A DNA stretch of 62,013 bases, filler included, from Hausera hauseri (taxonomy: Eukaryota): assembly GCA_046269625.1 (NCBI GenBank). It is 12 parts of 12 records of this genome, joined end to end, with 100 filler letters (N's around TTAATTAATTAA, not from the genome) between each part and the next. Parts side by side here need not be neighbours in the genome. Positions count along the whole stretch, not along the records: positions 22,912 to 26,900 come from JBJURY010836526.1; positions 27,001 to 31,193 come from JBJURY010708547.1; 10 more parts are not named here. One strand, given 5' to 3'. Positions 649-51,918 of the stretch are shown here, in pieces. The stretch's first letter is position 1. Every line of letters begins with the position of its first letter. Below the pieces are notes generated by a model. That model searched no databases, was not told the origin of the DNA, and saw only the letters and a list, made by a program, of their open reading frames with translations. Made by a program: the position numbers and the translations under genes.

Positions 649-3605
649 TAGCCCATAGCGTCGTAAGATATCGTAAGGTGCATTTCGGGTTTTGTTCAAC
701 TCAGTACACTAATTAAAAAAAATAGAAATGAAAGTTTTCTCGGTAGACCGTGACACTCCCTCCCATTTTTGGGCACCAGAAAACTTTAAAAAGTCAACTT
801 TTGGCAATAATCCCATAATTGCTTTCATTGCTTATGTCACATTATTTGTAACATTCTTGTTTTAAAAAACCAATATTTAAATGAATTTGATGACTCTGGA
901 TGTAAACAATGCAAGTTATGGATTGTTATTTCAGAATATTCATTGGCCATCGTCTACGAGTAATACTTTGTAGTTCAACAAAGTTTGAATTTTAGCAATA
1001 TTGATTGTTTGACAGCTTTTAAATTTTAAACGTTCAAGTTAAAACGGCGATCTAGCATAGTGTTATATACTGAATTAATTGTTCCATCGTCATTCTTTTA
1101 CATTTTGACATTTTTGGAATTTTGCAGATTACCATACGTGCGTTTTGCAATTTATCAGTTTCGTTGGTATCTATGATGTAGTGCTTAAAACCAGATCATC
1201 ACAAAGTCACAACATATTTGGAAGTATTTTAATGAATCTTCCACAATCGGAATTACCAACTCACCAACAAGTAGCGAGATATTTGCTATTTTTGAAAGAA
1301 AGTAAATACCAAACGAATAAGGATACAATTCCCGAACTTGCACAAACCATCATCAATTTATTGATTCGAACTGGAATTCCACCACAATCACTAAAAACTG
1401 TTAAAAAGAAACTTCATCGATTAATACATGAAGGATCAAAAGTATCGAAACATGGAAAGGATGCTGCAAAAGCAAAACAGTTTGCTGTTTCCCTGAAACA
1501 TTTGTTTGATATTGCTGCTTGCCAATGTCATGACCTGAAAGCCTGCCGTTGTGAAAAAGAATTCAGAGGTCCTGAACGAGAACGGAGGTTTCTCACAGAT
1601 CAACAAACGATTCAAAAAATGGCAATTGGTGGAGTAGACCATGCGGTAACAGCGGAAATGAAACGAAAGAAGGCAAGAAGTGACATATTTAAAGAAAGAC
1701 AAGATGACGAAAAGAAGCGGAAAACTGGGATCGCGGCTAATATGGAATCTACATCAACTGTTGGTAACGATGAAGCACGACAAACGGAATCTGATGGAAA
1801 TTTTGAAAACGATGAAGAATGGAAAGTGGAAGGAACGAGCATGCTGAAGGATTGAAATATGACTTCAATTGCAAATGTTGTCCGAGAAGCTGATAGATAA
1901 GGCGTGTCGAACAGGGCTGCAGTTGCTATATGCACGGCGACTCTAATTGACTATGGAATCGTGGATGTCGACGATCACATTTGTATTGTAGACCATCACA
2001 AGATATGGCGAGCGCGAAAGAAGTTGAGAATGAGTCTGAGGAACAAAGGAAATGTGAAGGATGAAAAAATAACTGCCTTGCTTTTCGATGGATGGAGGGA
2101 CAGGACGCAGATAAAGGAAAGTATCGGTGGAAAATAATACGGAAAGGAGGAGGTGCAAGATCATTATGTTTTAGTCGGAGAACCTGGAATGTCTTACCTA
2201 AAACATATTACCTTGCAACATGAAACTGGCCATGAAATTGCAAGAAGATTAAAAGAATCAGTGGAAGAAATTGGAATTGACGAGACCGTCCACGTTGTAG
2301 GAGCTGACAGCGCCGTTGTAAGCACCGGAAAATACAATAAGGCAATTCGTTTGCTTGAATGTGCATTGAGTCGACCACTTCAGTGGATCATATGTTACTT
2401 ACATTTGAACGAACTCCCTTTTCGACACTTATGCAAAACGCTCCTGGTTTCATCCGAAAGTCCTACTCAATGGAGGGCAGCAATCGGGAAGGCGTTACCA
2501 TCGTGTAAAACTTTATTTCCAACTGCTTCAGGATTTAAACGTATCACTACCGACCTTGGAATTGAATGAGCTGAGTCGTGACCAAGCTTACCTGTGTCAA
2601 ATAATAACTGCAACTAGAACTGGCAAAATCGAAGAAAACCTGCTTCGAGAAAACCAGGAGTTGTGACAATGTTCCGATGAGTTACCATTGCTAGCCGAAT
2701 TTGCCGACTGTATGTGACAACGGCAGAACCAAGTGACGACTTGTTCACCCTCACCAGATTTGTTGTATGCTATTACGAACCAATGTGGTTCCAGATTATG
2801 TATCACAGTAAGTGCACCGATGGGTCAAACCACTTGCTACAACAAATTAAACTGACAGCATCCCTTACTCCTGGAGAGAAATCAATCGTTTGGCCCGTAG
2901 TATAGAAAAATACATACTGGGGTCACCAGGAACATGTTTTGCTTGCAATACTTGGAGACACAGATAGAACAAAGAGAGAAAAGGCAACTTCAGTAATAAA
3001 GTCGATACGACAATGCAAACCACGTGATCAGTCTGAATCAAAAAATGTTCGACTGTTTGCAACACCAAATATCAAAGAAACCTCAAAGAATTTGATGGAC
3101 TTTTTGCCGCCATTAAACATTTGAACATCAGAACCACCACTTACGATGCACATGTCTGTCGACGAATTGGAAAGAATCGCTGATGATGCTCTATCTTTGA
3201 AGATCCTTTGCCACCCACAGTAAGTTGACAGGTGTGTTCGAATGGTGACCTAGGCGTCCTCTGTGGTATACGGAATGGTGGCCAGAGACGGATATATTCG
3301 AGCTCGAATTAAGTCACGCGAGCTGATTCCATCATTTGAAACGAAAGATGACTTTGTTATTTAAAAGTAAGACTGTGGTTGGTTCCAGCTCAAAATGTTT
3401 ACTACGTTGTATATCCTCTGTTCAGTATTTGAAAAAAACATCTCGTTTTTACCCTGTTTGTTACTTTTTTACTCGCAAAAAGGGGGGTTTTGCGATTAAC
3501 AGACAAGAAATCTGATTTGATTTTTGAAATCAGTGCCACTCATTGCACAAAACCCCAAGTGCGCCTTAAGATACAAAAAAAGTTAGATAATTACGTTACG
3601 GCCTA
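649..3605 (+). mobile_element. DNA transposon (hAT-related, hATm-like) with long imperfect TIRs and a decayed DDE transposase (~1181-3363)
   Basis: The left end (TAGCCCATAGCG...TATCGTAAGGTGCATTTCGGGTTTTGTTCAA) matches the reverse complement of the right end (TTGCACAAAACCCCAAGTGCGCCTTAAGATA...GGCCTA). Transposase motifs FDGWRD, GADSAVVSTG, LQWIICYLHLNELPFRHL and CHPQ*VDRCVRMVT*AS. Multiple in-frame stops; no TSD found. Confidence 0.7.
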
Positions 3606-3671
3606 ATTATCATACTGTACGTATACTAGCGGCATGCTCTGTTATGTGCAATTGTAGAACCAAAGTTGAAA

Positions 3672-4600
3672 ATATCGGTTGAACAAGAGCGTCGTGCCAC
3701 TATCATAACTTGCCTTCATGCGCGTCGCACGCCCAATGAAATCGTTGAATTCACAAAGATCCCCAAATTGACCGCCTATCGGGTTGCGGCCAACTTCAAA
3801 GCTGCCAAAGAGGAATAAAATGGATCGGTAACATCTCTCCGCGATAAGCACAGTCGATCCGGGTGCCGAAAGCTCAAAACGGACGTCATTAAGCAGGTGA
3901 AAGATCTCGTCGATGCCGATCCGAGCACTTCGATGAGAACTTTGGCTGCCCAGATGAACGCTGGGCGTCAGACTATCATCAACGCCATTCGAGATGATCT
4001 GCGCTACCACTTCTACGTGCTGAAGGTACTACAGCTGCTAACGGAGCCGATGAAAGCGAAACGACTGGTCAAGTGCAGCTTTCTGATTTTAATACTGATG
4101 CATGAGGCATCCGGCCGTCTGCGCTTCTTCGGTGACGAGAAGATCTTCACCGTCGATGCCTCCCTCAACCGTAAAAATGACCACTGGTTGGCACAAGATC
4201 ACAAAGATGTACCTATCGTCATGACAAGGAAGAATCCAGCGTCCCTATACGTGCTGCTGGTTGTTTCTAGCGCAGGTGATATCATGTTGCCTCACTTTTT
4301 TGACAAGAGTCAGACAATCACCAGTCAGGTGTATCTGGAAATCCTGCAGACAGTGGTGCATCCGTGGATTAACCAAATAGCTGCTGACAAGCCGTATGTC
4401 CTCCATCAGGATGGCGCACCAGCCAACAACACCTGAATCGTCCAAAACTTGGACATATTCTGATCGAAAGCGTTTTGGCCACCGACCTCGCCAGATTTAA
4501 TTTCCTTCGATTACTACTGCTGCGGCATAATCGAGCGGGAGTCTAACAAGCGTGCACACAACAGCATTGACTTGCTGCAAGCTGATATTGTTAATGTGTG
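3672..4600 (+). mobile_element. Tc1/mariner superfamily (maT/DD37D-like) transposase pseudogene
   Basis: N-terminal HTH (EQERRATIITCLHARRTPNEIVEFTKIP), FFGDEKIFTVD, QDGAPA and WPPTSPDLISFDY with D as the third catalytic residue; frameshifts and stops. Confidence 0.8.
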
Positions 4601-10979: not shown

Positions 10980-11545
10980 AGAGAGAGAGAATAAATGGTG
11001 CTAATAAATGTCTTGACGATAATGGTGCAAATAAAAATGTAAAGTGCGTCTAGACAATGTCAAAATGGTGCAAATGGTGCATATAAAAATGCCTAGACAA
11101 TGTAAAGTGAGTCTAGCAATGTCAAAATGGTGTAAATGGTGCAAATAAAAATGTCTAGACAATGTCAAAATGGTGCAAATGGTGCATATAAAAATGCCTA
11201 GCAATGTCAAAATGGTGTAAATGGTGCATATAAAAATGTCTAGACAATGTAAAGTGCGTCTAGACAATGTCAAAGTGGTGCAAATGGTGCATATAAAAAA
11301 GTCTAGACAATGTAAAGTGAGTCTAGACAATGTCACGTGTGAGTCTAGACAATGTCACGTGTGAGTCTAGACAATGTCACGTGTGAGTCTACACAATGTC
11401 ACGTGTGTGAATCGACAATGTCACGTGAGAATAACAAATGTCTGGTGACTTTCCGCACGCATCGCGTGACCAATCACGTGACGCGTGGGCGGATATCACG
11501 TGACGCGTGGTCGGATCACGTGATGCGTGGGCGGACCCCCCCCTT
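10980..11545. repeat. compound minisatellite after an (AG)n start, grading into CACGTG-rich repeats
   Basis: Repeated units CTAGACAATGT(C/A)AA, AAATGGTGCA and GTGAGTCTAGACAATGTCACGT, then ATCACGTGACGCGTGGGCGG. Confidence 0.9.
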
Positions 11546-11574: not shown

Positions 11575-12939
11575 GCAAAAACAAAAGTTTTTATTTATTC
11601 GAATATTAAAACAAAAAAGTTTTTTAACAAATCACCCATTGGGTGAATGTGGGCACCACATCACTCCGCCCCCGTGGCAAAGTCAGATTTGTCAGGCAGG
11701 AGCCCTCGTGAGTCTTCTGGTGACCAACATGTAGGTGGACTGTGACCTAGAAGGAGACTCAGCAATTGAAATATTTACGGCCGGAATTGTTCGATTTCTT
11801 TCTGAAAGACCGTTTCGAATATCGGTGCCAATGCAGTTTCAAATTTACTGAAGTAATTGGGATTGTTATTGCACACGATTTTTATGCACAGCGCAATGGA
11901 TTTCATTAGAAAATGACTGAATCGTGGTTTCTTCAGATTTTTAACGACTAGATACCATTTTCGTAGTAAGAACGGCAGAATTTTATCCAACGGCAGCTGA
12001 CTAGTTTTCAAGAAACTAAAATAGCACATAATGGCCTGCATAGCATAATCATTCCCTTCTGATTCTTCAATATCCCGACAATTATATTCTGGTGAGTAAG
12101 AGGGATGAGAAATGTTTGAACAATTGTTGGTTTCTTATATTTTATTCGGCTCGACGGGGGCTGAACTGACGGTATCTGATGTGTCGACTGCGTCGTTAAT
12201 GGAGAAATAAAATAATTCCTGGATTTCGCCGAGATGTAAATATGGGATGTGAAATTCCACTTGTTTCCCTTCGATTATGAGGCAACCAGTCTCTCCTGGG
12301 TTAATTGGTTGATGAAAAATGGTTGACCCTGCTGGATCCGTAACCGTTATAGAGTATTGAATTTCTGCCCGTTGTACAGCGACTGTGTACAAATGTGGGC
12401 TTCTGACACCAGTGTTAAATTTGTCATTTCTTTTATAAATTGTCGCATTGTCTACATCAATGCCTTTGACAAGTTTTGACTGAGATTGAGACTTCAAAGA
12501 AATATTTTCTTTATAATCAACATCATCATAAATATGGTGATTATCGGATTGCTTCATAGAATATAAATTATTGATATTACTTATAACTTTATTAAACGTA
12601 TTAAGAGAATCGGAAGCTTCATTCACATTATCAAAAACAACATAATTCAATTTACCATCTTCATAAACTTTTTTGATAACACTCTGTCCGCTTAAAATTT
12701 TTTCATAACATTCCTTAGATAGTAAAACCGTATCGGATTCGTTTGGGTCATTATCGTCAACAATACTGACTTTAATTAAACTTTGTTTATCATATATTTC
12801 ACCGTCACCCATCATCAATTAAAAAACAATAGTTTGGAAAGACCGTCTAACTGCAAAACAAAAGTCTTTATTTATTCCAATATTAAAACAAAAAAGCTTT
12901 TTTTAACAAATCACCCATTGGGTGAATGTGGGCGCCACA
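11575..12939. repeat. ~85-bp direct repeats (11575-11660, 12853-12939) containing the palindrome TCACCCA-T-TGGGTGA
   Basis: Direct comparison: GCAAAA(A)CAAAAGT.TTTATTTATTC.AATATTAAAACAAAAAAG...AACAAATCACCCATTGGGTGAATGTGGGC.CCACA in both copies. Confidence 0.9.
12135..12818 (-). CDS. hypothetical protein (227 aa)
   Basis: Uninterrupted ORF in AT-rich DNA; no family recognised. Confidence 0.5.
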   Translation of the reverse strand: MMMGDGEIYDKQSLIKVSIVDDNDPNESDTVLLSKECYEKILSGQSVIKKVYEDGKLNYVVFDNVNEASDSLNTFNKVISNINNLYSMKQSDNHHIYDDVDYKENISLKSQSQSKLVKGIDVDNATIYKRNDKFNTGVRSPHLYTVAVQRAEIQYSITVTDPAGSTIFHQPINPGETGCLIIEGKQVEFHIPYLHLGEIQELFYFSINDAVDTSDTVSSAPVEPNKI

Positions 12940-12940
12940 A

Positions 12941-13820
12941 GGACCACTTCTCGAATGTAACGAATATCAGTACATCCTAACCATTCTGGACCGGAAAACA
13001 AGATGGCCCAGAGTTATTCCAATCCGCTAAATAACAACGCAAAACGTTGTGGCTGTATTGCTAAATACATGAATTCCTCGGTTTGGAGTACCTAAAAACA
13101 TTATACCAGATCAAGGTACCCAATTCGAATCAGCCATGTTTAACCAATTAACCAAATCGCTTGATTCAAAGCACACACACATCACCCTATCACCCGCATG
13201 CAAATGGCTTGATTGAACGATTTCATCTTACACTCAAATCATCCCTACGAATCCTTTGCCACGACAACAAGAATTGGCTGGACGCATTACCCATCATGCT
13301 ATTAAGATGGAGAAACACTCCGAACACTAGCACTGATGCCTCTCCGGCACAACTATTATTTGGTGCCCATCTCACACTCCCACAAGATCTGGTGAGCAAT
13401 GAGGAAGTAACTTCCATTCCTGCTCTCAACCAAGCTCGGAAGCATTTTCTGTCAATAGACACAAATCCGGCATTCCACAACAATCACAAAAAAACAATCA
13501 TGCCCAAGAACCTACGAGATGCATCCTTTATCTGGCTCAGAAGTCAACAAAGACATGGTTTTGAACCATACTACACGAGCCCCTACAAGCTCACAAAAAT
13601 CACTGAGCACAATGCCAAAATAATACGCGACAACGACGAACATATAGTCCATTTGTCGAACGTAAAACCAGCATTCGGCTATCATAATTCCGATACAGAA
13701 GATCCTATCGAACAAAACGTACCAAGCATGTCAGAAGTAGACAAGCTTCAAGAAAACTACGAAAAAATTGATCCATTCAACATGGACACTCCTATAGCAG
13801 ATTACCCGACCCCGGTCTAA
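12941..13820 (+). mobile_element. Ty3/Gypsy integrase fragment
   Basis: GPL...YILTILDRKTRWP, RFGVPK.IIPDQGTQFES, TSPYHPHANGLIERFHLTLK and a GPY/F-like YTSPYKL. Confidence 0.9.
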
Positions 13821-16339: not shown

Positions 16340-17829
16340 CTTCCAATTTGCTTAGATACGACTATTTGTTTATATTCTACGTTCCGTTTTTGATGAAATA
16401 GACTGTACTCTTTATTTACATTTGAATCACAGACTCTGACGTTGATCACCTCGTTTAAACAATGGCAAAAGTGTAACATTTATTACCTGTTCAATTTGAA
16501 ACAAAATCCGTCTTAAAAGCATAAATACGATCGAATGAATTCAACATTAAATTACCGATCGACATTTGCCACAAAACTAATAGCAGTTCCAATTTGCCCG
16601 AACCGACCACATCGTCCAATTCTGTGCAAATACATTTCCGAAAATTGCGGCAAGTCATAATTGATCACGACATTGACCGACAGCACATCAATTCCACGTG
16701 CCATAATATCGGTACAAACTAAAAATCGAACAGTTCCATGACGGAATTCATGGAAAATGATTGTTCTAACATCTTGTTTCATTTTAGCATGGATAAAGCG
16801 ACACGTGTAACCCATTTGTCCTACACATTTCGTTAGAAATTCGACTCTCGATGATGAATTGCAAAATATCAGACACTGATTCACGTACAAGTTCTTCAAT
16901 AACTGTCTCAAACACGATATTTTATAAGCTTCTTGTACGTTGATATAAAATTGACGTACACCAATCAATGCTAATTCATGCATTCTATTTATTCTGTCAT
17001 ATTGCTTTAGAGTCTTCTCCACGAAGCTCTTCAGTGATTCCGGATAAGTAGCCGAAAAAAGAATTTTCTGACAACCCTGTGGTAAAAAGTGAATTATTTT
17101 ACCAACAATTAACTGAAAAAAGTCATAGTAATTAAATGAAAAACAAAAAACAAAACAACTTGAAAGTTGAAAGACAGTAACTTATCGGCTTCATCTAAAA
17201 CAACTTTTTTTTACTCGTCTTAATGTATTTGGTCTGTTGTAAATTATGTCGAGTATTCTGCCCGGTGTTCCTATTATTAAATGTACCGGATTATTAGGGG
17301 TGTTAAAACGTAGCAGATCATCAATTAAATCTGTGCCGCCGGTTGCGATCAACATCTGAAAACCAAGTTTATATTTTGCTAAATTTATACAAACGTCAGC
17401 AGTTTGCAAGGCCAATTCTCTTGTGGGAACTATTATTATAGCTTGGGTTCTTTTTCGCACATCAATACTCTGAACAATCCCAATCGAAAAAGCACCAGTT
17501 TTGCCTGTACCACTTTTTGCTCTAGCAATAAGATTTTTATTGCCAATGATTTGACTAATTGTTGCATCTTGAATAGGAGAAGGCCATTCCCATCTCATGT
17601 CTGCAAGAGCCATAATGATTGTCGGATGAAGGTTTAAATGAAGAAATGATGCTTCTGGGTATGGTTGAATATCTGATGTTCTAAATGAATGGTCCAAATT
17701 TGGTAGAGGTTCGCTGTTGAACTTTAAACATTGATAATTATTTGGAGAATCAACAGATTCTGGTGATCCGAAGTTTTCCGGATGATTCGTATCAGAACTA
17801 CTCAAAACACAATTTTTTGATTCATTCAT
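16340..17829 (-). CDS. DDX6: DEAD-box RNA helicase DDX6/Dhh1/Me31B (short introns)
   Basis: PSPIQ, ARAKSGTGKT, VPTRELALQT, GTPGRILD, LDEADKLLS (after a one-base shift in a poly-A run at ~17205-17212), FSAT after intron 17113-17159, NQCLIFCNS, IHAKM and YLHRIGRCGRFG. The 3' end is approximate. Confidence 0.9.
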
Positions 17830-19392
17830 TTCTTTGAGATTCGGTGAAATAACTCTTATCGATTACTAGACATGTAGTGCACTAATGTTACGTTGGACTT
17901 TGGACTGAAGAACAGTAGCTGAAATTTTAACAGAAGCAATTACTACATGATAAACTAAAAAGTTTTCGGTTTACCTGAAACTCTATTCAGCTTTTGAAAA
18001 TTAAATTATTTCTACAAATTAATTGTCAATCTAATGAAGATTATAAAACTTACGAAATGTTATTGGATTATATAATAAAATATTATTTGTGCAAGTTTGT
18101 TTTATTGAGCTGATAATGGTAAACTTTTCAAATGAATATTCAATGAATTGTAGTAATTTGATTTGTGGAATAAACTATATAGTGAAGTTTACCGTATACC
18201 GTTGTCCGTTATTAGATTTCTGCACTTTCATTCCTAATTATTTCATTATTTAACCATGAAAACAATTGAAAATTCGAAATGGAATTGAGGTGTTAAATGT
18301 ATTCAAGAATTACTCCGTTTTTGAAAAGGAAACTGTATAAATTATTCTGCGTTAATGTTTTATAAGCTATTTTCCTACACGAGCGCACATTTCAGATATG
18401 GCGTTCAAAAGGCGGTTAAATAATGTGTGATACTTCTAAAATAAGTTAAAAATGACGGAAATATTTACATTCTCAAATTGAATGAGAAAGCAGAGCATAT
18501 TAAACAACAAAACATCGTACTATATAGTATTAAAATTTGACATTTACAAAATTGCACAAAAAATATTTTTCACATTTTAGTTTTTATTGTTTTGTACAAA
18601 TCATTTTGTAATGAGTTATTCAATTGCTTTGAGGAATTTACGGTATATTTTAATGTTCAATTCTGAATAATAAAGTTCATAGAAGATTGAAATTTATCCG
18701 TTATTTCTGCTCCCAACCTAAAACAACGGAACCCAAAACGGCCCATTAAAATTCACCGATCACAACGTGTGGCATTCGACAATGAATGATGCACCAGTTT
18801 ATCAACGATACATTGTCGTATTTTCATTGGCAGCATTTCTCCTTTATTTTGCTGTTCTACGAGAAGAAAATTCCGTGGATCAATATTTGTTTAGATCTCC
18901 ATCGAATGTTCAGATACCAAATAAAACGGATAATTAACAGTGATATTTGAATAAATGAGAATGAAACTTTATTTGGTAAAATGCCATGAATTTGAGATTT
19001 AGCTTGTCTGTCGGAAAGTTATCGCACTTCCTTTGGCTCGTTTTGGTTGGAAATTTGTCAGAAAAATTATCGCCGGTGTGTTATTTAAGTATAAGTTGTT
19101 CAAATACGCGTCAAATATTTCGTATTTTCTACGCATTTGTACAGTATCACTTAAAAATATGTTGCACTTATTCACTTTACTTAAAATCCAAATATGCATG
19201 CACAAAATTTCGACAGTTTTAATAGATTTCCTCCCATTTTTAGCTACATTTTAATGGAAAACTAGCATTGCACAGCAATTTAGACTATAAGACTAATGCA
19301 AACTTCGGCAATCACAAATGGTCCAAAATTTTCAAAATGGTGATTGAAAAAATAATTCTTTCTGAGATTTTTATGCAACAAAACCAATTTTA

Positions 19393-22811: not shown

Positions 22812-23139
22812 NNNNNNNNNNNNNNNNNNNNNNNNNNNNNNNNNNNNNNNNNNNNTTAATTAATTAANNNNNNNNNNNNNNNNNNNNNNNNNNNNNNNNN
22901 NNNNNNNNNNNGCGAAAAGCCGAACGAGACGCGGAACTATATAGGTGGAATGAGTCAAAAAATAGTAACAATAACTACGATAAAAGAAGAAACAATGGTA
23001 CACAAAAATACCAACGTTACCAAAGAAATAGAAGCCCTTCACGAACGTCTGCTACGGAAGCTGAATCAGATATAGAAAAGAAGGTAAGATTTAAGTTACG
23101 TAATGATGGAGAAAAGACAAATTATAAAAAATATCTAAG

Positions 23140-24825
23140 AAAGATGGAAGTGTACTGCCATGTATAGACTCAGAAAGAAGATTGAAATGTTTTAACTGTA
23201 ACAAATATGGACACATCGCGAAATCATGCACATTACGCAAAGGGGCTTCTTCGAAACTTAGTAACAAGAATAAACAAAAGAAGACAGATCATACATCAGC
23301 CACATCAGACGAATCATCTGATAAAGAATACGAAACAGAGGATAGTGAATCTGAAGCTAAGAATAAGAAGAAAGAAAGTGTCAATTATATAAACGATACG
23401 TTATCTCAACGCATGAAAAAACAATTGGAGATGAAAGCGAAAGATTATAAAACACAACAAAAGAGGCTGAAAGAAAATAGTATTTACATGGTGAGGAATC
23501 AACCGGAGAAGAAAGTATCCAGACAAGGGGGGAAGAAAGGTAATAAGAAAATAATTGACATAGAAGTATGATCAAGAGAAACGTCAACAGAGAGAGAAGA
23601 GGTAGGAAAAGAAAAGAAGAAAGGACAAAAGAAAAGTAGCCTCAAAACACCCTCATCAGATCAAGACGAAACCCAAACCATACCAAAATTTGATGAAACA
23701 ATATTGGAGAAGGTAATAAAAAACTCAGGTGTAAACCTAGATGAGGAAGATGATATCATTCAAGAAATAATGAATATTGACCCTAATAACATAGATGACG
23801 TAGATAAAACAATTACTAGTATATTGAAAGCAATTAACAATAAAATAACAGTAGAAAGAATGAACGAAATCTTATCTCAACTAGTATTAATCACTCAAAA
23901 TACCAGTCCTGTAAGAGAAATAGCCAGGATGATATTAGCCAAAGCTGCTGGAGAGGAGCAAGGAAGAAACGAAATAATAAAAATAACGGTAAGAGAAGGG
24001 AACCAAGACATGAAGGTCATCCAAATGAATGAAGCGGATGACATACAAAATATAAGAGAAAGGATAGAAGAATTGGAACCATTCTATCAAGGGATCCCTT
24101 ATGAATTAAATTATTACAGAAGGACACAATACAATTGCGATAGACTATTAAGAATTGGATGCAGAAATGAGAATTACAATCCAATAGTTATAACCGAGAT
24201 ACACACAGAGGCAAGAGCGCAGGCAACAACGGATAATATCCTAAGAGAAATGGAACCGCAAGAAGTAGAAGGACATCTCCTGGTCGATACGCAAGATGTT
24301 ACAGTTCAAACAGAGGTTAAAAGTAGAGGTAGACCAAAAGGAACAAACATAAGTGACATTCGCAACAAGAAAGACAAAAATGAAGAAATAGTAAGACGTC
24401 TATTATTAGCAGGAACAAACGTGACTCCTGAATCGGTAGAGATAGATCCATTATTAAGAACTTTACTAGCTAACTTACATACATCATTTGCTTCATTTGA
24501 TGCGCAGGTAATAATTCCAGATGAACTATTCCAAACATTACGTATTAATATGCTGCGAATAAGTAGACAGATTTACGAGAATCTAGACGAAGAACGGGCA
24601 AACGAGTTGCACGAGTTAGACATTTTAAAAGAGATGTTCGCAACGGGTATTACACGAGAGAAAGCACAAACCTCTATATCCTACCTTCTATACAAAATAA
24701 TAGTAATCAATCATCAAACTCAAAACTTAGAAGAAATTGAACGCAATATAAAGACAGTCGTGAAGATTTTGAAATTAACGTTAGAAATTGGGTCCATTGT
24801 AGAGGTGGCTGGTTGCCCAGTCTAA
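23140..24825 (+). pseudogene. gag-like protein: CCHC zinc knuckle, K/E-rich linker, AT-hook-containing helical region
   Basis: CFNCNKYGHIAKSC; the same frame continues through a single TGA (23569-23571) into the 373-aa ORF containing KSRGRPKG. Confidence 0.7.
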
Positions 24826-26766
24826 TGGCCAACATAGCAAGGTTGGGGAAGCGCGAAAGGTTAACAGATACGCCGATTCCGATTCAGCCGAACATCCCTA
24901 GATCAGGCATAACCGGTATGTCAATAATGGAAATCCTCCAGGTCCTCTTAATAACATCATTTTTAATGCCGAAAGCCGTAGGTATAGTGGCCTACGACTG
25001 CTCCAAGCCTAGTAAAGGACAGAAGTATTCTTTATTGGATTTAGAGAAATGTCCAGAAGCCGATCCGGAACAATTAACTACGACAAGTGGCCTTACATAT
25101 TGGGTATATCAAGAATCAGAATTTATAAAAGCAAAAATTAGGGAATGTTACGTAAAAAGATCATTTTTCCTTTTTAATTGTGACTATTATTCTGGAAATT
25201 CGGCCATAATCGAGCCCACAACACCTTTCTAACCGATAATCATATCACGAGCAGAATGTCAGGATGCTTTCAAGATTGGCATAACTATTCAAAACGTACA
25301 TATACCCGCAGTTTGAAACAGAATAAAATATAACAGAATCTTTCGAGCAGGGCGAATAGATAAAACAAAGGAAAGTACATGTAAAGGAGTGGATTACGAT
25401 GTGGGAGGCGCCATTGCACCTAGAACGGTGGCTATAGAGGATTATCAAGTCCAATTGAATGAATATGAAGGATTGTTCGACTCACAAACGAAATTAATGA
25501 TAACTATGAGTGAATGTGAATATGATGATGGCGAATGTGATTCTGGAGAGTCGAAAATGACATGGGAAATATCGGCAAGTAAGTGCCAGTTTACGCTATT
25601 AAAAGAAGGAAGATTTAACAAGGCAGTAGGAAAAACAGCGACATATAAAGAAGGAACAAAGGAAGTTAAGATGACGGAAGTAGCTACAATTGTATATTCA
25701 GAAAATCCAGAAGAGATGATGCGATTCAAAGTTACGGGAGTAGTACATATGTGTGGTGAAGAAATATCGAGAACAAATTATAAGGGCATTTTCCTATCAT
25801 TAAAAGAAATGTCCGCAGCAAAAACGAAAATAGATAAGAAAGACATAAAATTAACACAATAATTTGATAATAAGATTGATTTTTTAATCAAAGATGTACG
25901 GAAAGAGATTAGAGGTTTATACCGTGAAATAATAATGCACTAATGTAAACTAAATTATAAAATAATACGGAATAAAATGGCCCTGGTAATAACAAATCCC
26001 GACATGGTAGCGCCAGTCATGCCCTTTGGCGACGAAATTATTGGAAGGGTGATGGGCGAAGTACTGATAACCATAGAATGCAAAAGGGTGAAAGTATCAA
26101 TCAGGCCAACAGAGGAATGTACAACAGAATTACCCGTAGTTTGTAATACAGAACCAAGGAATGTGATGCCAGATAATGAAAAATGTATTAGAATGCTAAA
26201 AAGAGAACCAGTGTCTAAAGCAGAAACGTTAAGCTTAATTAATTTACAGAGGAACCAGAGATTCGAACCGTTAACAGGGATATCGCAAGAGGAATCTATA
26301 TTCAACAAAATTTAGAAAATTACCGAGAAATGCTGTTATTCCCACAACAAAGGCAGCGGGTTATAACAGAGCTAACCAGGAGAATAATGTGGGACGGTGA
26401 AGGATCACCACAATGGGAAAATTTAATGGGTAAGGATTACCTAAAGAATGTAAGAAAAAACGTTATGGAAAAGATGTGGGGAAAATTCTTATATTTCGAC
26501 CAAGCGGCTTCAGGTTTCCTAGCGACATATTTTATTATTAGTGCTGTAGAACAGTATTTACGGTGCTAGGTAAGGCGTACGGAATACATACAGCAGTAGG
26601 ATGCTCATGGAAAATCTTAATAGCAGTAATACCGGGAGTCGCAAGCTGCTTTCTAGCAAATCATGACGCCAAATGGAAAAAAAGATATTACAGAAGAAAG
26701 ACGGAAGAGATTCTCCACACAGTATGCCTGATGATAACAATAGCAAATATGATCAGGTCAAAGTAA
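24813..26766 (+). pseudogene. chuvirus-like envelope glycoprotein (env-like)
   Basis: Signal-like ILQVLLITSFLMPKAVG then IVAYDC...YSLLDLEKC, ECYVKR...C, ISRAEC, TCKG, HMCGEEISRTN, GEVLITIEC, ECTTELPV, a TM segment and AYGIHTAVGCSWKILIAV; stops and frameshifts. Confidence 0.8.
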
Positions 26767-27006
26767 AATCAAAGAATAATCGAATAACTAGTATTAAGCA
26801 ACTAGCACTGAAGTACGGAAACAGAAGTACAAACAAAGGTTGGTGATAGACTTACCTCATCCAGATCCCGTGTGTGAATATCATGGACAATTATATAGCG
26901 NNNNNNNNNNNNNNNNNNNNNNNNNNNNNNNNNNNNNNNNNNNNTTAATTAATTAANNNNNNNNNNNNNNNNNNNNNNNNNNNNNNNNNNNNNNNNNNNN
27001 TTAGTT

Positions 27007-28121: not shown

Positions 28122-28995
28122 TCAATTTCTTATTTTGTATGTCACAGCACATTCCTGTCGTCCATAATCAGTGACGGTACACAAATATTCATTGTCATCG
28201 TCATACAATAATTTGTCTTTGTGCCAAATTTCCACATTTGCAATATCAACATTCAATTTGTTACTGATTCGATTGCGTAATTGTGACAAAGTTGAGTCAG
28301 CCATTTTGATTATTGGATGGACTGGATTTGCTGGTTTGGCATCAAATGTAAATAAATAACATCCACCACCTCTTACACTGCACAATAAATGAAATGAATA
28401 CATAAAAAGAACATCAACAATTACAGCCGCGTGGCAACAATAGTATCACCGTCAGAAATGTCGTAATCAATCATTAATCTTCCTTTTTTTAACAACACGT
28501 AAGAAAGTACTAAATCATAATTATCATGTCTGCTCCATGGATCAACTTTTCCAAATAATTTGCATTCAAATTCCTTCATCAAATCACCCACAGTCATTTC
28601 ATTTCTACATAAAATTCTGTAATTGTTGTCATGGCCCATTTCACGCACAATGACCCTATCAACAAATAATCATCAATAAAAATCAAAACAAACAAACGTA
28701 AATTCCCGAAGGCAAATATCCAACACATCACCATCACAAATACCGCATTTCTCCACAGAATCACCAAGCAATAAATCTCCTTTACGTTTCACATCAAATT
28801 TACAATCATTTGAATACCCAAATTTCTCCTTAACAATTCTGTACAACTCATCCATTGACATATTTAACCAAATTGGTATTTTTTCAATACGACCAAATTT
28901 GCCACGCACCAAAATCGTCAATCTGAATGGCAGTAAAAACAAAAAATGCAGTGAAAGAAAACAACAACAAGAACAGAATACTTTTTCTCGTCCAT
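28122..28995 (-). CDS. tandem ubiquitin-like protein (three UBL domains, internal diglycine), 4 exons
   Basis: Spliced reading MDEKK|LTILVRGKFG...CGICDGDVLDICLREFT|VIVRE...DYDISDGDTIVATRL|VRGGGCYLF...STLSQLRNRISNKLNV...; the GT-AG introns restore the frame. Confidence 0.75.
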
Positions 28996-29617
28996 AAGTG
29001 TCGTTAAATCCCCGAAACAAACAAGAATAAAACATAAATGTCAATAAAATTATGATTAGAAAATATACTTTATGTTTGTGTGTAGTTTCAATACATATAT
29101 ATAAATGTATATAGTAATATTTATTTTATTTGATGATTGTAAGTCAAAATGATGAATATTTAAAAATTATATAATAATGAATTAATAATTTTGTACATTT
29201 TGTATTGTGAATATTTCATTCCAACTAAAATTTAAATTCAGTCATGAAATTATTCAGCAATCGAATTACTGAATTAATAACTGCTTTTTGCAATTAATTG
29301 CGGTAACTTCTTAATTGAAATCGTGATTTTTTGTCTACGCACGGTTAATTTTATTCCCGACAAAAATTTTTCGACAAAAAAGAAAAATAAAATCGATCCG
29401 GTATACAGGCTCCGACGAACATTGTTGGAGGGAAAATTTTCTGTCTTTTCTCATTATGCCATTGTCATATATTTCTGCTTAATTACAATTTGAAACTGAC
29501 AATAAATGAATTATTGATATAAAATAGGAAATAATCAATAATCAATAATGGATAATTACAACCAACTAACATTTATTCAGAACGATTATGGATGAACGAA
29601 TGACACAGAAAATTGCG

Positions 29618-30583
29618 TTACTCACCGAGTTTCCTCCATTCATTTGAATATTTATCTAACATAGGAGGATGATCTACTTGATGGGTTGGTTCATTTCTAC
29701 ACATGATCGAGATTCGTCTAGTTTTCTTCACAGGTATCCCATTGATGAAACTTTGATCATTGGCGAGAACTTCGTGTGTAAATCTGTATCGAATATCTCC
29801 GCTGAATATTTGTATGAATTATGATTTGTTGAATTTACCAGCAATATTATGAACGTTGAGTAAATTTCATAATTGGTGTGTGTAAGTGTGCGTGTCATCG
29901 TAATGGTATTTTAACAACTGACCTCATTACATACATCGACCGACGCGGCAACCGCACCGCAGCCCATTCCGACGTGTCCTTATCCCTAACGAACTTCATC
30001 ACGCAATCCGACAGAAGACTAACACCGCCGATAATCTCACCACAGAACTGCGTACCGCAATAAAGAAAATAAAATCAATACATTTACCCTGATACTGTCA
30101 ATGTGTGGTTTAATATGTCCGCTGTCTGCCAGATCGAGTACGTGCGTATATTTGATGACGTTTGTTCCATCATTGACTGTCGTGAATGCGAATTTGTGCA
30201 TCCGTTGGATGACAGCGGCATTCATCTGCTGCCAATTTGACTTTTCCGTTTCTCGGAAGTTGTGAATTGCCTGTATTATTCAATAATAACAACTATTATT
30301 CATTGTACACAATAAATACATCATCCCAATGACTCGTCTCGTATCTTAATCTTTTTAAATACGGTTCTAATTCTGCACATAAGGAATTCTCCTCATCCGG
30401 ACTGATGAAATCACAATAAAGACTGAAATTGTTAAATAAAATGTTTTCATCGAAATTCTTGCTAAATTCACATTGAAAATGGTTTTTTTCTGTTTTGCAT
30501 AACGAATTTGACACGAAATATCTGATTGATTTTGGAATAATTCCGTTCCATTGGAAAATAATACGACTAACACTTTTGAACAT
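29618..30583 (-). CDS. ALKBH7: AlkB homolog 7 (2OG-Fe(II) dioxygenase), spliced
   Basis: DFISPDEE...LEPYLKRLRYETSHWDD|AIHNFRETE, HVLDLADSGHIKPHIDS.R|FCG..IGGVSLLSDCVM, LPRRSMYVM|..IRYRFTHEVL and RRISIMCRNEP. Confidence 0.92.
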
Positions 30584-31919: not shown

Positions 31920-31936
31920 TATAAAAAAATTTTCTG

Positions 31937-33109
31937 ATGTTGGGCGAAAATGACATGCCCCTGCTTCCTCGCTCTTTGGGTGAAGAGGTCTTTAATGCGT
32001 TACAGAGTAAGTTTAAAGATGATGTGCGCACACTTGCTTACCCCCCTCCCAGTGCTACTTTCCGGCACTGGATGTTGGTGCACGAACTTAGGAACAGTGA
32101 CGATGTTTTTGTCTATTTCCGTTTTTATTTTGAGTTGTATAAGGTTCGTCACTGGTACATTCGTATGCAGGAGGAAAAATCACCTTCCGGGTTCCATCAT
32201 CTTCACGTTCTTATTCATACCCCTTTTGCATATCGTCTGTCTTTTATGCATAAGCATCTGCAAGCTTTTGTTGTCCCCTTTAGGGCTGATGTGTATGCTG
32301 TTTACTCGTATCATTTTAAGCCCACTTTCGAAAATGCAATTATTTTATCTTGTGGAAACCCCCCTATAAATGTATATAAGGAGAATAACTCCCGTAAGGC
32401 GCTTTATCGATTATTCGATGAGGCGCCGACGGTTGAGGATGCTCTCGCCATCATGAAGGATGGCGATCGAGCTGAGTACGTTACCCGTCACGGTATGTTA
32501 CATAAATATATAAGGAATAAATTCCGTCCTCGTTTTACCCCTAATCGTGATCTTGTGTTCTTAATTCCTCCGATACCTTTTTCGGTGCGTGATGGACGAA
32601 ATAGTGCTGTTTTATTTGGGTCGAGTAATATCGGGAAAACGTCGTATGCTCTTAGTCACGGTCGTAACCCGTTACTTCTCCACTCGTTGCATGATACTCC
32701 TTCTGATTGGACAGGGGAGTATGATGTCATCATATTTGATGATGTGGGGTTTCATGACTTGGCCCCTGATTTGTTTTTGGCTATTTTACAGTGTAATCAC
32801 GAATTGGACAATAGGTCCATTCGTGGTTTGTATAAGTCGGTGGTTGTTCCCTCTACAGTTCCCGTCATCTTCACTTACAATTGTGCTCTTTCGTTTTGGC
32901 CTGCTCGTATGGATGGCTTCCAGAAGGAAGCTTGCATTAAGCGTCTTTTTGTGTATGACTGCGGTAATAATTTGTTGTATAAGTCTTCGGGTTCTCGAGA
33001 TGTATTTCTTTCAAATAATGTAATTGATGTACGTCGTTTAATTGATGCCAATAATGGACCCTGGAATGCAGCTGGTATGCAACCTGGATGCAGCTCAAGT
33101 GCAAGGTGA
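31937..33109 (+). CDS. rep: CRESS-DNA virus (geminivirus-like) Rep: HUH endonuclease + SF3 helicase
   Basis: QEEKSPSGFHHLHVLI (motif II), YSYHFK (motif III YxxK), oligomerisation-like helix EDALAIMK, Walker A GSSNIGKT, Walker B IIFDD, motif C IFTYN and arginine finger ACIKRL; uninterrupted 390 aa. Confidence 0.9.
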   Translation: MLGENDMPLLPRSLGEEVFNALQSKFKDDVRTLAYPPPSATFRHWMLVHELRNSDDVFVYFRFYFELYKVRHWYIRMQEEKSPSGFHHLHVLIHTPFAYRLSFMHKHLQAFVVPFRADVYAVYSYHFKPTFENAIILSCGNPPINVYKENNSRKALYRLFDEAPTVEDALAIMKDGDRAEYVTRHGMLHKYIRNKFRPRFTPNRDLVFLIPPIPFSVRDGRNSAVLFGSSNIGKTSYALSHGRNPLLLHSLHDTPSDWTGEYDVIIFDDVGFHDLAPDLFLAILQCNHELDNRSIRGLYKSVVVPSTVPVIFTYNCALSFWPARMDGFQKEACIKRLFVYDCGNNLLYKSSGSRDVFLSNNVIDVRRLIDANNGPWNAAGMQPGCSSSAR

Positions 33110-33519
33110 AGAATGACTTTGATTTTGTTTTGTGATTGGCTGGTTAAATATATATAATCTTGTGTCTAGTATTTTGTATTTTGTTTTTAAATATGTGGCA
33201 TAATGTTTTCTTACGTAATCCTGATCCTAAAGCTCAGGAATATCAAATGTGTAAATTGTTACTGCAGGGATATGAACGTCTTTATGCTGTTGGACGTTTT
33301 TTGAAGAATATTGATGCTGATCGTTTATGTGATAGTCCAGATCAGATTTCCAATTATCAACATGCTTGTTCCTATGTTCAAGATATTCAATGTGATCTTT
33401 GGAATTTAATGCGCGGTTATATATATCTGACAGCAACTCCTCTTCGACCGAAATTGACCACATGCTCCATACCAATCCTAATCAAGACAAGTGTAGCATT
33501 ATACACCAGGCAAACGAGA

Positions 33520-33835
33520 TACGCCTTATATATTCCTGACATTCCCAATATATTGTCTATATTACTTATATATATTTCCATATTGCCTGTATATTTTTTA
33601 CATATTCCCCATGCATTCCCCATATATTTTCCTATACTCCTATATATTCTCTATATATTCTCTATATTCCTATACGCCCCATATTCTCCATATATTCCTC
33701 ACATTCTCAATATATTGCCCATATATTTCCTATATGTTCCTCATATGTGCCTCATATTTGACCCATATTACTTATTATTCACCATATCCTTAATATATTC
33801 CCTATAATCCTCATATATTCCTTCCTTATTCCATC
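33520..33835. repeat. low-complexity CATATATTCC-type minisatellite
   Basis: Repeated (C)ATATATT(T)CC/CT units. Confidence 0.8.
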
Positions 33836-44479: not shown

Positions 44480-45760
44480 AGAGCGACTAACATTGATTCA
44501 GTAGTCGTTTCCGTCATTAAAATCTGCATCAGTGGTTTTGGCTCTCCACGTTACATCATAAGGAACCAAGGTCCGCAATTTGAATCTGATCTTTTCAAAT
44601 CTCTAGTTAAACGCTTGGGGATATCATATTTCCATACAACACTGTATCATTCCTAAGCAAATGGCCTCCTTGAAAGTTTTCATCAAATAATGAAAATCAC
44701 ATTGAAAATTTTAGCAGAGAAACACCATAATTAGACATCCATCTTGCCTCTCGTCTTACTCGGTTGGAACAACATGCCCTCTACAACTACGGGTTGTGAT
44801 TCAGCTGAGGCTCTCTTTGGGGCACTAATATGGTCTCTATTTGAGCTCTCCGACAGACGAAAACATTCGCGCGGCACAGTCATACTTCGTTGAAGTCAAT
44901 ACGAATTCATTCTGCCGCCTCATAAATAACAATAAATCGTACATTAGGGAGGATTTGTACTCCGCTAAGTTCGTATGGATAAAAAACAAATCGCTTTCCG
45001 GTTTTCGGCCTCAGTACATTGGCCCTTATAAGCTGCTTAATCTCTCATCTCACACGGTTATCATCTTAAGCTAGAACAAGCCCTATAACGTCCACACATC
45101 CAATCTCAAGCCCTTTCTTTATTGACGACAATCCGGATTATAACGCTGCTTCCAATTTTAACTACACTTCTGTTCCTTTCAGTCAATCCTCTAATTTCCT
45201 TGATGACTTTGCTTCGTCGCAGCAGCCAATATTGTTCCAAAGCCAACCACCTTCACTTCCTTCATCATCGACACCACTTTCTTAGCCTACTTTTCTCCAC
45301 TTGCTCTCTTCACCTTCACCACCCCTTTTACATTCATCGCTTACTTCGCTTGACTTATTTCCTTTTTCACCTTCAACGTCTTTGACACATGCAACACCGA
45401 TTCGTAACTCCAAGTCTTACAAATTGTCAACCCCAAATTGTCGCTCGACGGTTACACACAAGCAACGTAACAAAACGCAGTCATTTTCAGCAAATACAGT
45501 AGGGAGAAAAATAGTAAAGGAATTCAATATCACATACATACCAAAACCGCTTAGCCACATAACATTTCTTCCATTTTGCAGATTGCTTTATCTTTATTTT
45601 TCAACTTTATACTTTTCAACCCAACCACGAGTGGTGATGTAAGGACCACCTTATTTTAGTCCCCCTGGCCCATTTTTGGTCGGACACGGCCGGATGCGTC
45701 GGTTTCGCGCCGATTGTGCCGTTGCCGAGGCCCGGTTTTCCTTTTGGGAATTTTACCGCA
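44480..45760 (+). mobile_element. Ty3/Gypsy integrase remnant with 3' region and probable LTR start (TGTAAGG at ~45638)
   Basis: FGSPRYIIRNQGPQFES, TTLYHS*ANGLLESFH, LPLVLLGW and YIGPYKL; similar to the 12941-13820 copy. Confidence 0.8.
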
Positions 45761-45779
45761 TGACAGCAACAATTCACAA

Positions 45780-46800
45780 CCAGTTCTTGTATATGCTGAA
45801 TTTTTGAGAACCTTTATTCTTGAAATTGGTGCAAACTTTGATAGAATCGGAGCAGTAATATCCCAGGAAGATGAACATGGTAATGAACAAGTTATAGCGT
45901 ATTGATCACATTCTCTTGGGAAACATGAACTGTGTTACTGCATTACAAGAAAAGAATTATTTGATGTATTATTTCTGTGAACATTTTAAACATTACCTTT
46001 ATGGGAAAAGATTTAAAATAAAAACAGATCACAAGGTGATTACATTCATGATTAAGACAAAACGACCTATTTCCCCAGTTTCAAACGTGGATGAACTTCC
46101 TTACTAGTTTATATATTGAATGGATATATCGCAAGGGTGAAGATCATATAAATGTGGATACTGTTTCGAGATCGAACTGTGAAAGGTGCGTACAATGTCA
46201 ATTCTTTCATGAAGACCCAAAGATAGACATGCAAAAGATAAAGATGTTAGCAACGCTGGCAAGCTCTATGAGTATCAAATAGCAAGAAGATACGGATGGA
46301 ATCCAGAAAATTAGAAACGACATTGACGGAAACTCCAACAGATTTACGATAGTCGATGATGTTATATTCACGAAGGAAAACAAAAATTCCGCACACAAAA
46401 CGTCATGAATTCATAAAAAAATACTTTGCCATGCCGGAAAGCAGAAAATCGGGATATACCTTAGAAAAGTGATCGATAATTTCAAAAATTGTCAGAAAAG
46501 TAAAACGTATACAGGGATAACGAAAGAGATCAGAGGCAAATATTCAGAACCGCAAGTATTCAAATCAATTTTTGTAGACTTTTGTGGACCATTAAGCCAA
46601 CCTTACATATTTGCTATAATTAATGAAAAAAGTAAATATCATTCTAGTGGTTTTTGAAATTCGGTTCACCGAGAGCAGTACATTGTGAAAGAGGCTGTTG
46701 CCATTCTTCTTGTGTATAAATGATATTATTATTTCTACAACTATGTTGAAATACTTGCTGAAATAATTTATCCAATAGATGCCATTTCTTGCCTGCCAGT
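45780..46800 (+). mobile_element. Ty3/Gypsy pol remnant (RNase H and integrase)
   Basis: FILE..A....IGAVISQ...EQVIAY, Y.ITRKEL, HFKHYLYGKRFKIKTDHK, YRKGEDH.NVDTVSR and FVDFCGPL. Confidence 0.85.
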
Positions 46801-47961
46801 AATATACATGGTCTAACAATTAAGCCCGTATGATTTTCCAATGTAGATAGATGAAAATCAGTCTACAAACTTTATTGTTAGACCATGTATTTTTGTCTTC
46901 TTCAGATCAAATATTTTTGTTATTTTTCTTCCTAACAATATTGAATCAACTTCCATTAAACTGGTGGTATGTACGATCGCTAAAATATTCACTTACTATA
47001 AAATGAAATTCTGTATACATATTTCAATAATANNNNNNNNNNNNNNNNNNNNNNNNNNNNNNNNNNNNNNNNNNNNTTAATTAATTAANNNNNNNNNNNN
47101 NNNNNNNNNNNNNNNNNNNNNNNNNNNNNNNNTGTGGGTGCAAGTGGACACAGTTTTCCATAGGAAGGGGTGATAATGAAACGGAAAGGTTACAAAGAAC
47201 TGTGAGGTATTAAATCACCAATGTGGATGTTGGGGAAGTTCACCCTAATAAATTGACTTGATATACTATTTTTAGTTTGTGATTGGTTTTGGTGTTGTTA
47301 GTTTATGATTTATAATAAAATTTATTTGAGTTTTTGGTGTTGTTTTAGATTAATAATGAAATGTATTTGAGTTTTTGAGAAATGTGCGATTTTCAATTTA
47401 TTTTCGATAAACATTATAACTCTATTACTTTGGACTAATAGTCAGAAATGTACATTGGTGAAAAAATCATTTTAGCTTAATTTTTATATAGAAATAAACA
47501 TGTGATATATACATATTGGACGAATCGGATTTGACAGACTACTGCGGAATTCTACAATTACTTTTTGTTCAGAATATCCTTTGACTTACACTTAGATTTA
47601 GATTGTGATTTACAATACAAAGTTATTTACATTTTTGTGTCGTGTTTTAGCTTGATTTTAGATTAATTGTTTTTGGTGTTGCTTCAATAATATTGCATTA
47701 ATATTGTTGTAAATATTTCACTATAATGGTCATTCAACCTAAGACGCGTGGCGCATAAGCCGTTTGCGTAATTCTACCAAACTTAAGCCCCATTTCCTTA
47801 TCATAAAACAGAAGACAAAAACTAGTGTACAAATACGTTATTGATCATATATAACAAACATGTACAGCCGATAAATGTAAAACAAAGATCACAAATGCCA
47901 ATGATCTGGCTGAACTGAATTGCATGTTTGTACTGAACTGTTTGTGAGCACTTAACATATG

Positions 47962-50900: not shown

Positions 50901-51918
50901 AAATATCATAACACTCGACCTTGTTATAATAAAGCCGAGTGACAATTTTATTATTCGCCAACAACTGCTCTTTGCGGTATAGTTGGCGATTTTTTCGTCG
51001 AGCTTTTCACCTACGTCGGTAATAAAATCCTCTGAATATGGCGTGGTTCAGTGTGACAAGTACCACTGTTTCCTGTCGCCTTGAAGATTTTCAAATTCTG
51101 TAAGTGCATAATATTGCATTTTGCAGTTGTGTTGGAATTTCTTCACTTTCGATTCCAACCGGTGGCGCACACTGGACGGTACATGTCTCAAGTGTGTTGC
51201 TATTGTCACTGACATATGTATCTTAATGCCCACGTACGATCTGTTCAGATCATGCCTGACAGTAATGTCAGATTCCTGTTGCTGCTCCTGTTGTTACTGC
51301 TGCTGCTGCTCGGCAATGTTTCTGATTAAATCGTCAAGGCTTGTTGAGGCCTGACGTTTCCTACTAATTATTGAAGGGATGCTGCTCTTAGTTGAGTCCA
51401 TAACTAGCTGTTTTTTCGACCGCTTAAACTGGATTAAGTGGTCCTTGTGCAGATTATAAAATTGTTCATAGTTGATTTCAGCAACTATTGAACAACCGGG
51501 ACAAACGTACGCCCATTTATTGTGCAGCGTTGTGGTGCCATAGTACTGCTCAATTGCACTATGACAACCACTAACGTTGTGCACTTTATTATTGCAGTAG
51601 TGTGGGTGTGTGGGGCAATGCACAACCATCATCTTCTTAGACCGAGTAAACGATCCGAGATTATGCTTGTGCGCCTCATAAAATTCGGCGTACGGGCCTT
51701 CGGATGAAACAACACACGTTGGGCACACGTGTCTGTGCCAATTGCGTAATATTTTGCAATCAGTTTATGGCACTGACCACCCTCATGTCTGCTTGAGATG
51801 CAGTACATAGGATCTTGAACACATTTCTAAATTGAAATAAATTAATGATAAATGCTATATATTAAATCATTTATAATTAAAATTAAAATACGCGTAAATT
51901 ACAACTTATCACGCCCAT
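47962..51918 (-). pseudogene. Polinton-type protein-primed DNA polymerase B (copy 1) with endonuclease VII-like domain and N-terminal Cys/His repeats
   Basis: YCFLYSILA, FERRNP.LSINVF, HYMALK, YADIEAIL (ExoI), DHDHFTGRFLGAACKSCNL, FHNFRGYDCH (ExoII), KGIFPY, YLKLDVYLL (ExoIII), YTDINNLY (motif A), YYKLK (motif B), AGDTDS (motif C) and the SWAYGH C-terminus. Confidence 0.92.

Follow-up and report, generated by a model that had tools for sequence, protein, structure and literature searches.

Burro1-4 and GYPSM1, known from Schmidtea mediterranea and Dugesia, are Ty3/gypsy elements of giant size (more than 25-30 kb) with a first open reading frame (ORF1) of about 4,900-5,100 aa, in which Gag, two or three CCHC zinc knuckles, a ubiquitin-like domain (Ubl), a BCL2-like domain, Env, and Pol are described in one frame (PMC6431247). 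The same paper raises the question of whether Burro elements interfere with host cell death, and BURRO1 is reported as an abundant, piRNA-silenced element (PMC8532177). In this study, a contig of Hausera hauseri (JBJURY010836526.1, assembly GCA_046269625.1) was compared in its layout with these elements. The contig is one of twelve that are joined by N-TTAATTAATTAA-N spacers into the 62,013-nucleotide stretch analysed here (the window), where it fills positions 22912-26900. Judged from its sequence, it very probably holds a copy, decayed and cut off at its ends, of a Ty3/gypsy long terminal repeat (LTR) retroelement of the order GAG-ENV-POL, a compact relative of Burro and GYPSM1.

The order GAG-ENV-POL is also found in a catalogue of errantiviruses, in which elements with an Env of the herpes simplex virus (HSV) gB type are recorded from Nematoda, Bryozoa, and Platyhelminthes, and in the nematode non-canonical endogenous retroviruses (ERVs) of Sacco et al. 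(2022), as cited there, Env precedes pol (PMC13524379). Burro, Bcl, and ubiquitin are not mentioned in the text of that catalogue or in its seven text supplements, of which each cell was covered up to 400 characters, figure supplements lying outside the scope. The present analysis ties the Burro description to this catalogue of GAG-ENV-POL errantiviruses, which to that extent omits Burro (PMC13524379).

Structure of the copy

The features of the contig are listed below, with three related proteins, P0004, P0005, and P0006, for comparison.

22912..26900, no strand assigned: whole contig, 3,989 bp, 36% G+C, flanked by spacers at 22812-22911 and 26901-27000
22913..23164, plus strand: Gag end, an Asn/Arg-rich low-complexity stretch in a frame that differs from that of the knuckle, assigned mostly by position
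23188..23229, plus strand: single CCHC zinc knuckle (nucleocapsid), zf-CCHC PF00098, E 3.8e-5, above the curated cut-off
23230..23739, plus strand: charged low-complexity linker with one in-frame stop (23569-23571), open in P0004
23740..23967, plus strand: five-helix bundle, HEAT-like or TFIIS-N/LEDGF-IBD-like, common to P0004, P0005, and P0006 in a four-sequence alignment
23974..24195, plus strand: internal ubiquitin-like domain, from a four-sequence linker profile against PDB
24325..24336, plus strand: RGRP motif, present in P0004 also and not in P0005 or P0006
24415..24812, plus strand: probable Bcl-2-like domain, split by a frame change near 24770-24790, with a BH2-like WxxxxGGW at 24789-24812
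24933..24989, plus strand: internal hydrophobic stretch, taken as the signal peptide of Env, with a Kyte-Doolittle maximum of 1.94 at 24933, followed directly by AYDC at 24990
24990..26664, plus strand: Env of the HSV-gB/mononegavirus type, ectodomain and membrane-anchor region, PF24664, with four stops and two frame changes
26665..26900, plus strand: post-Env tail, the contig end preceding the expected protease position

An initial annotation of the locus had noticed a CCHC knuckle, a region with RGRP, and a glycoprotein that begins with a signal and AYDC, and this series was found again (23188, 24325, and 24933/24990). It had also counted one stop and one frame change between these parts. 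This holds from the knuckle to Env, where the stop at 23569-23571 and the frame change near 24770-24790 are the only breaks, but Env itself contains four more in-frame stops (25230, 25314, 25860, and 25941) and two more frame changes, one near 26550 and one between 26171 and 26291, where it is about 28 codons shorter than the Env of P0005. Over its whole length, the copy is interrupted by five stops in frame and shifts frame at least four times; it is dead and cannot make the polyprotein.

Env matches Pfam family PF24664 (Monjiviricetes_fusion) in two pieces, with E 3.9e-44 and 7.4e-15, which upholds, at the level of the chuvirus/mononegavirus-type family, the chuvirus type first assigned to it. 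A weak Borna G match is present in Env as well, and a second hydrophobic peak lies in its anchor region at 26602. A PDB sequence search with Env gave no match. In tblastn, its identity is 45% to P0004, 36-44% to P0005, and 37-40% to P0006.

On the Gag side, the low-complexity stretch is weakly like the same stretch of P0005 (z 3.0, a score reached by 3 of 500 shuffles). The knuckle aligns with the single knuckle of P0004, and the count of knuckles is one in the window and in each of the three relatives. A capsid was seen only in P0004, the N-terminus of which matches the Arc capsid (E 0.0068). The 5' end of the contig cuts through coding sequence, and the contig start lies 3' of the capsid. 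No LTR and no tRNA primer-binding site was seen within 22912-26900, no long repeat pair is listed inside the contig, and both of its ends fall inside the element. Since the gag-env unit is confined to one contig, statements on genes missing upstream or downstream are bounded by the contig ends.

Relatives and the position of pol

The Ty3/gypsy assignment is based on the domain order of the relatives and on the Pfam families of their pol. In a search with Env among proteins of 869-2,480 aa, one of 2,971 candidates matched, namely P0004, which was also the sole match when the 417-aa middle region was used in a full HMMER scan. P0004 is a single open frame of 1,130 aa from a contig of 4,786 bp; it comprises a capsid-like Gag, one knuckle, the linker, and Env, inside which it ends. 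Its identity to the window is 29% over 579 columns on the knuckle-to-Bcl-2 side and 46% over 352 columns in Env, and the homology crosses the gag/env junction (tblastn blocks 197-751 and 734-1111). The suggestion of a single former polyprotein made up of gag, the middle region, and env is borne out by P0004, which is such an unbroken frame.

Among longer proteins, a word-index search with the 417-aa region gave no match in 7,444 candidates, and a search with residues 630-1130 of P0004 gave two in 2,992, P0005 and P0006. These are single frames of 3,761 and 3,771 aa, in which Pfam places PF24664 at 844-1469, protease at 1899-1994, RT (reverse transcriptase) at 2217-2374, RNase H at 2438-2567, and integrase at 2679-2851. 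Their order is gag-ENV-pol, in frame, with pol downstream of env. Among the 22 listed of 28 cluster members, 20 are full length and two are fragments, and in all 20 full-length members listed the knuckle precedes env, followed by protease, RT, and integrase. The ORFs of the pol-bearing relatives have 3,744-3,771 aa; these members fall into two clusters of near-identical sequences and therefore represent two independent elements. In Gag, P0004 and P0005 share 54 of 153 residues (z 44).

Each of the P0005 and P0006 polyproteins has three protease motifs of the DTG/DSG type. The third protease-like domain lies past the integrase, where residues of about 3050-3770 also include hydrophobic segments and some 400 aa that contain cysteines and have no confident Pfam match; this C-terminal region is possibly a second membrane protein in the same ORF.

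In the contig of the window, an eight-pattern scan in six frames was negative for protease, RT, and integrase motifs on the plus strand, in keeping with the earlier observation that no pol motif lies between knuckle and Env; a single isolated DTG-type match lies inside env on the minus strand. After 26551, in the pre-anchor stretch of Env, 116 codons are left, whereas P0005 takes 241 residues from the matching point to its first protease Asp. The expected position of this residue is thus about 125 codons past the contig end, and it is for this reason that the contig cannot show pol. The pol of this copy most likely lay beyond 26900. The tail after Env had no significant match to residues 1450-1760 of P0005 in alignments against shuffles, and the idea, formed by eye, that the last codons are the start of the protease was not supported by the P0005 alignment (z -0.9 to 0.7). 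Locus scans for relatives with flanking DNA found none in viral_contigs or metagenome_contigs.

The view that the locus is pol-less, or a new architecture, does not hold against these relatives, since P0005 and P0006 carry pol after env and the same order is published for Burro (PMC6431247). A pol between gag and env in other copies had been proposed as the sign of a simple deletion; no such relative was found, and pol lies after env, an option that this test had omitted. The gag-env unit appears to be the remains of an element of a type already described. As a caution, env can precede pol, and an element on a short contig can look pol-less without being so.

Other gypsy-type integrase and RNase H fragments occur on the plus strand of separate contigs of the window, at 12941-13817 and 44516-46074, with 24-38% identity to P0005 and P0006. 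As candidates for the pol of the element (12941-13412 and 44516-46074), they were set aside, as this identity establishes no link.

Two public runs contain 0.35 and 0.05 of the words of the stretch, and no RNA run is listed among those that contain it. At 80% likeness, 10,884 of 15.5 million records fit in X1 and 1,370 of 9.6 million in X2, with 30 of 30 bins covered; most of the fitting records have less than 95% identity, and record counts are not copy numbers. The contig ends are crossed by 108 records in X1, which may be the source sample, and by 27 in X2. From these data, the family comprises numerous diverged variants and extends past the contig.

The middle region

The open stretch of the middle region has 417 codons from stop to stop, with recognisable domains inside it. 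It had been described at first as helical and of unknown nature. A helical bundle is indeed part of it, but the region is not unknown, as it also comprises a Ubl and a probable Bcl-2-like domain. The bundle is the part that is modelled best, with a pLDDT of 66-81 over the first 70 residues of the P0004 model. In a structural search (VIA), the top Z for the bundle was 8.3 for HEAT-type structures, followed by the TFIIS LW domain (7.4), Elongin-A TND (7.3), and MLL-IBD (7.0), all values within the range classed as a common arrangement. The RGRP motif is one that we take to be AT-hook-like. The bundle may be of the TFIIS-N/LEDGF-IBD type and may form, with the RGRP hook, the element's own chromatin tether.

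The Ubl was placed at 23974-24195 because the linker profile of the window, P0004, P0005, and P0006 matches ubiquitin and Ubl chains in PDB. There were 61 matches at E <= 10, and 59 of the best 60 of these 61 are ubiquitin or Ubl chains over profile positions 70-192, with a best single-domain E of 2e-4. Pfam gives a ubiquitin match in P0004 (E 0.03-0.07), and the Ubl stretch of the window alone gave no ubiquitin match. Bundle and Ubl together match P0005 (z 7.0, 0 of 500 shuffles) and P0006 (z 3.6, 1 of 500).

The single-sequence model of the window's middle region has a mean pLDDT of 36, and the four-sequence model of P0004 381-760 has a mean of 46 and is confident for the first bundle only. 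Foldseek with the latter model found nothing at E <= 0.001, and pieces of the window alone gave rows at chance level only against PDB. Weak Pfam rows (PDH_C, Med15, MA3, SNF2, Cep192, and others) were taken as chance.

The domain at 24415-24812 is likely, though somewhat less firmly than the element type itself, to be Bcl-2-like, as judged by sequence comparison. Residues 651-748 of P0004 match Pfam Bcl-2 (PF00452) over profile positions 6-100 of 100 with E 0.013 (E 0.055 on the whole protein), at a score of 16.5 bits that is below the curated cut-off of 31.4. WxxxxGGW ends this match in P0004, and the window retains the motif at 24789. No significant match to this region was found in P0005. 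The position of the domain is that of BCL2 in Burro (PMC6431247), and it is largely because of this published precedent that the assignment is rated as it is. Between the window and P0004, the Bcl-2-like region is more conserved (59 of 133 residues identical) than the bundle and Ubl (36 of 145). Window, P0004, and P0005/P0006 represent a compact Burro layout, in which the bundle and Ubl are constant and the Bcl-2-like domain is present or absent.

On the next contig, short ubiquitin-like stretches with weak Rad60-SLD, KHA, and YukD rows lie at 28122-29125 on the minus strand. This gene was considered as kin of the Ubl of the element and showed no significant likeness to it.

Comparison with Burro and with errantiviruses

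As in Burro (PMC6431247), one frame comprises Gag, CCHC, a ubiquitin/SUMO-like domain, probably a BCL2-like domain, and a mononegavirus-like Env, with protease and pol after it in P0005 and P0006. The ubiquitin/SUMO-like domain lies between the knuckle and the probable BCL2-like domain in the window too (E 2e-4), and env stands in frame between gag and pol, as seen here for gag-env in P0004 and for gag-env-pol in P0005 and P0006. Decaying copies with stops and frameshifts are also described for Burro (PMC6431247). The differences are that only one knuckle is found here, including in P0004 with its complete Gag, against two or three in Burro; that Pfam finds no MATH, Smc, BIR, or ankyrin in the region seen here; that the knuckle and Env are only about 600 codons apart; and that the helical bundle before the Ubl and the RGRP motif are absent from the section on Burro in PMC6431247. 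Because the multiple knuckles are not found, the element is called Burro-like rather than Burro proper. A literature search, the scope of which excluded most subscription journals and Repbase, found neither the compact form with one knuckle nor the helical bundle described.

The features of errantiviruses that are present are the CCHC knuckle (with the capsid in P0004) and an HSV-gB-type Env with signal and anchor after Gag. Both the gene order and the type of Env are those of Smed_errantivirus_1-6, of the Platyhelminthes class C1a (PMC13524379). The YQES motif of the window's Env has four occurrences among the 229 Env sequences in the supplement of PMC13524379, all in Schmidtea elements, and in Smed_errantivirus_1 the YQES block is identical at 13 of 23 positions, as aligned by eye. 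The CxTG/SGES and TNYKGI-type Env blocks are shared with class C1a as well. In its sequence, the window's Env resembles that of the planarian class of GAG-ENV-POL errantiviruses, and this class makes a flatworm host likely; a neighbouring contig carries an animal-type gene with introns of 49 and 40 nt. The catalogue differs in listing intact elements, whereas the copy in the window is dead. The nematode ERVs also have Env before pol, but the nematode Envs in the supplement of PMC13524379 are without YQES.

Proposed expression of the element

One genomic RNA would be translated into one polyprotein. The internal signal would route the Env ectodomain into the endoplasmic reticulum, and the Env anchor would bring the chain back to the cytosol, where pol would be made. 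Signal peptidase and the protease of the element could then separate the parts of the polyprotein. Since the signal segment lies about 40 residues after the BH2-like motif, the Gag-Ubl-Bcl-2 part would be tail-anchored after cleavage, the cleaved segment keeping it on the Env-bearing membrane. Host Bcl-2 proteins are tail-anchored on membranes. Such an anchor would couple the capsid with the fusogen and give the Bcl-2-like domain the position that host Bcl-2 proteins have, where it would most likely dampen host-cell death during expression of the element. The BH1-like segment presumably differs from the canonical motif, and a non-canonical role is therefore possible. As the Bcl-2-like domain here is small and better conserved, the question of host cell death raised for Burro (PMC6431247) becomes easier to address.

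Alternative explanations

Several points weigh against a GAG-ENV-POL, Burro-like element with a Bcl-2-like domain. The likeness to Burro is one of described layout and not of sequence alignment, and the pol-bearing relatives are distant from the window (Env 36-44%) and without the Bcl-2-like region and RGRP. Pol is unseen for the window's own subfamily, since the contig is too short and the P0004 sequence breaks off within Env. The Bcl-2 call combines a sub-threshold Pfam match with a motif and a position in a part where the model is poor (pLDDT 27-59); the window's own split piece has no Bcl-2 match in Pfam or PDB, Foldseek puts CED-9 and Bcl-xL at E 0.8-1.0 only, and the VIA searches, mainly with residues 1-78, did not list Bcl-2. 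With regard to expression, the domain order and the one-frame layout are seen in relatives, while processing and anchoring are taken from general retroelement and membrane-protein biology. The same element type with another helical bundle at 24415-24812, not derived from Bcl-2, would agree with the lack of a significant structural match, with two Atlas searches that gave no usable match, and with a Pfam score of 16.5 bits against a cut-off of 31.4. It is nevertheless an unlikely alternative, because the Pfam match covers 95 of the 100 profile positions, WxxxxGGW is common to the window and P0004, and Burro has a BCL2-like motif at the same place (PMC6431247).

As neither Bcl-2-bearing sequence (window and P0004) shows pol, they could represent a gag-Ubl-Bcl2-env subfamily which, having lost its pol, is non-autonomous and depends on autonomous relatives for copying in trans; the last 116 codons, which are unlike the post-Env region of P0005, and the many variants of the family would fit with this. 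However, both sequences end before the expected pol, both full-length relatives found carry pol after env, and Burro, with the same Ubl-BCL2-Env series, has pol after Env (PMC6431247). Such a subfamily is improbable, and it keeps its small probability because neither Bcl-2-bearing sequence reaches far enough. It is just as improbable that the subfamily of the window and P0004 is a widespread, pol-less enveloped retroelement that brings its own capsid, envelope, and Bcl-2-like protein against cell death and depends on autonomous gag-env-pol partners as helpers for its copying in trans. Far less probable still is the chance landing of a chuvirus or mononegavirus glycoprotein gene beside a gag fragment, as an endogenous viral element. 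The PF24664 and weak Borna G matches would be expected from it, and arthropods commonly carry chuvirus-type glycoprotein genes inserted near fragments of LTR elements (PMC10084718), but the same gag-to-env fusion is open in three independent proteins and the homology to P0004 spans the junction. Equally improbable is a BEL/Pao element from which a pol between gag and env has been lost, BEL/Pao being the superfamily first named in connection with the glycoprotein. BEL/Pao elements with a chuvirus glycoprotein, known as Anakin, were reportedly described by Dezordi in 2020. The glycoprotein of Anakin is of the same broad family (PMC10084718), and mosquito BEL/Pao elements bear a related, chuvirus-like glycoprotein, which is also found beside gypsy pol (PMC13524379). 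The superfamily is another one, however, as the relatives here have Ty3/gypsy-type pol with env upstream of it. P0004 combines a single knuckle with an Arc-like capsid, and in the intact relatives gag is followed by env without a pol in between. For P0005 and P0006, Pfam gave 15-16 matches, without any family that we take to mark BEL/Pao. Instead of env after pol with BEL/Pao-type Gag and pol, an env-first order, a single knuckle, and gypsy-type Pfam families are found.

Other features of the window

At 16555-17862 on the minus strand, a DEAD-box helicase (DEAD, Helicase_C) occupies two adjacent long frames, is broken between its halves, and is apparently intronless; it is possibly a processed pseudogene. 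An animal-type host gene with GT-AG introns of 49, 40, and 121 nt lies at 29630-30580 on the minus strand and presumably recalls ALKBH7, without Pfam support. On the plus strand, a 394-aa ORF at 31925-33109 with HxH and Walker A and B motifs is followed by a 219-aa ORF at 33148-33804; at E <= 1, Pfam matched neither ORF, and a search of viral_contigs yielded no relative. The motifs of the 394-aa ORF recall, as we take it, the Rep of circular single-stranded DNA viruses.

Tandem arrays with units based on 21-22 nt lie at 11036-11426 and 12138-12818, near a 227-aa minus-strand ORF that weakly matches the Hint domain (E 0.046). One element is present on two contigs, at about 47960-51210 and 58050-61300, the two copies having blocks that are 75-84% identical. 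The element matches type B DNA polymerase on the minus strand (PF03175, E 8.6e-6) and is presumably Polinton-like.

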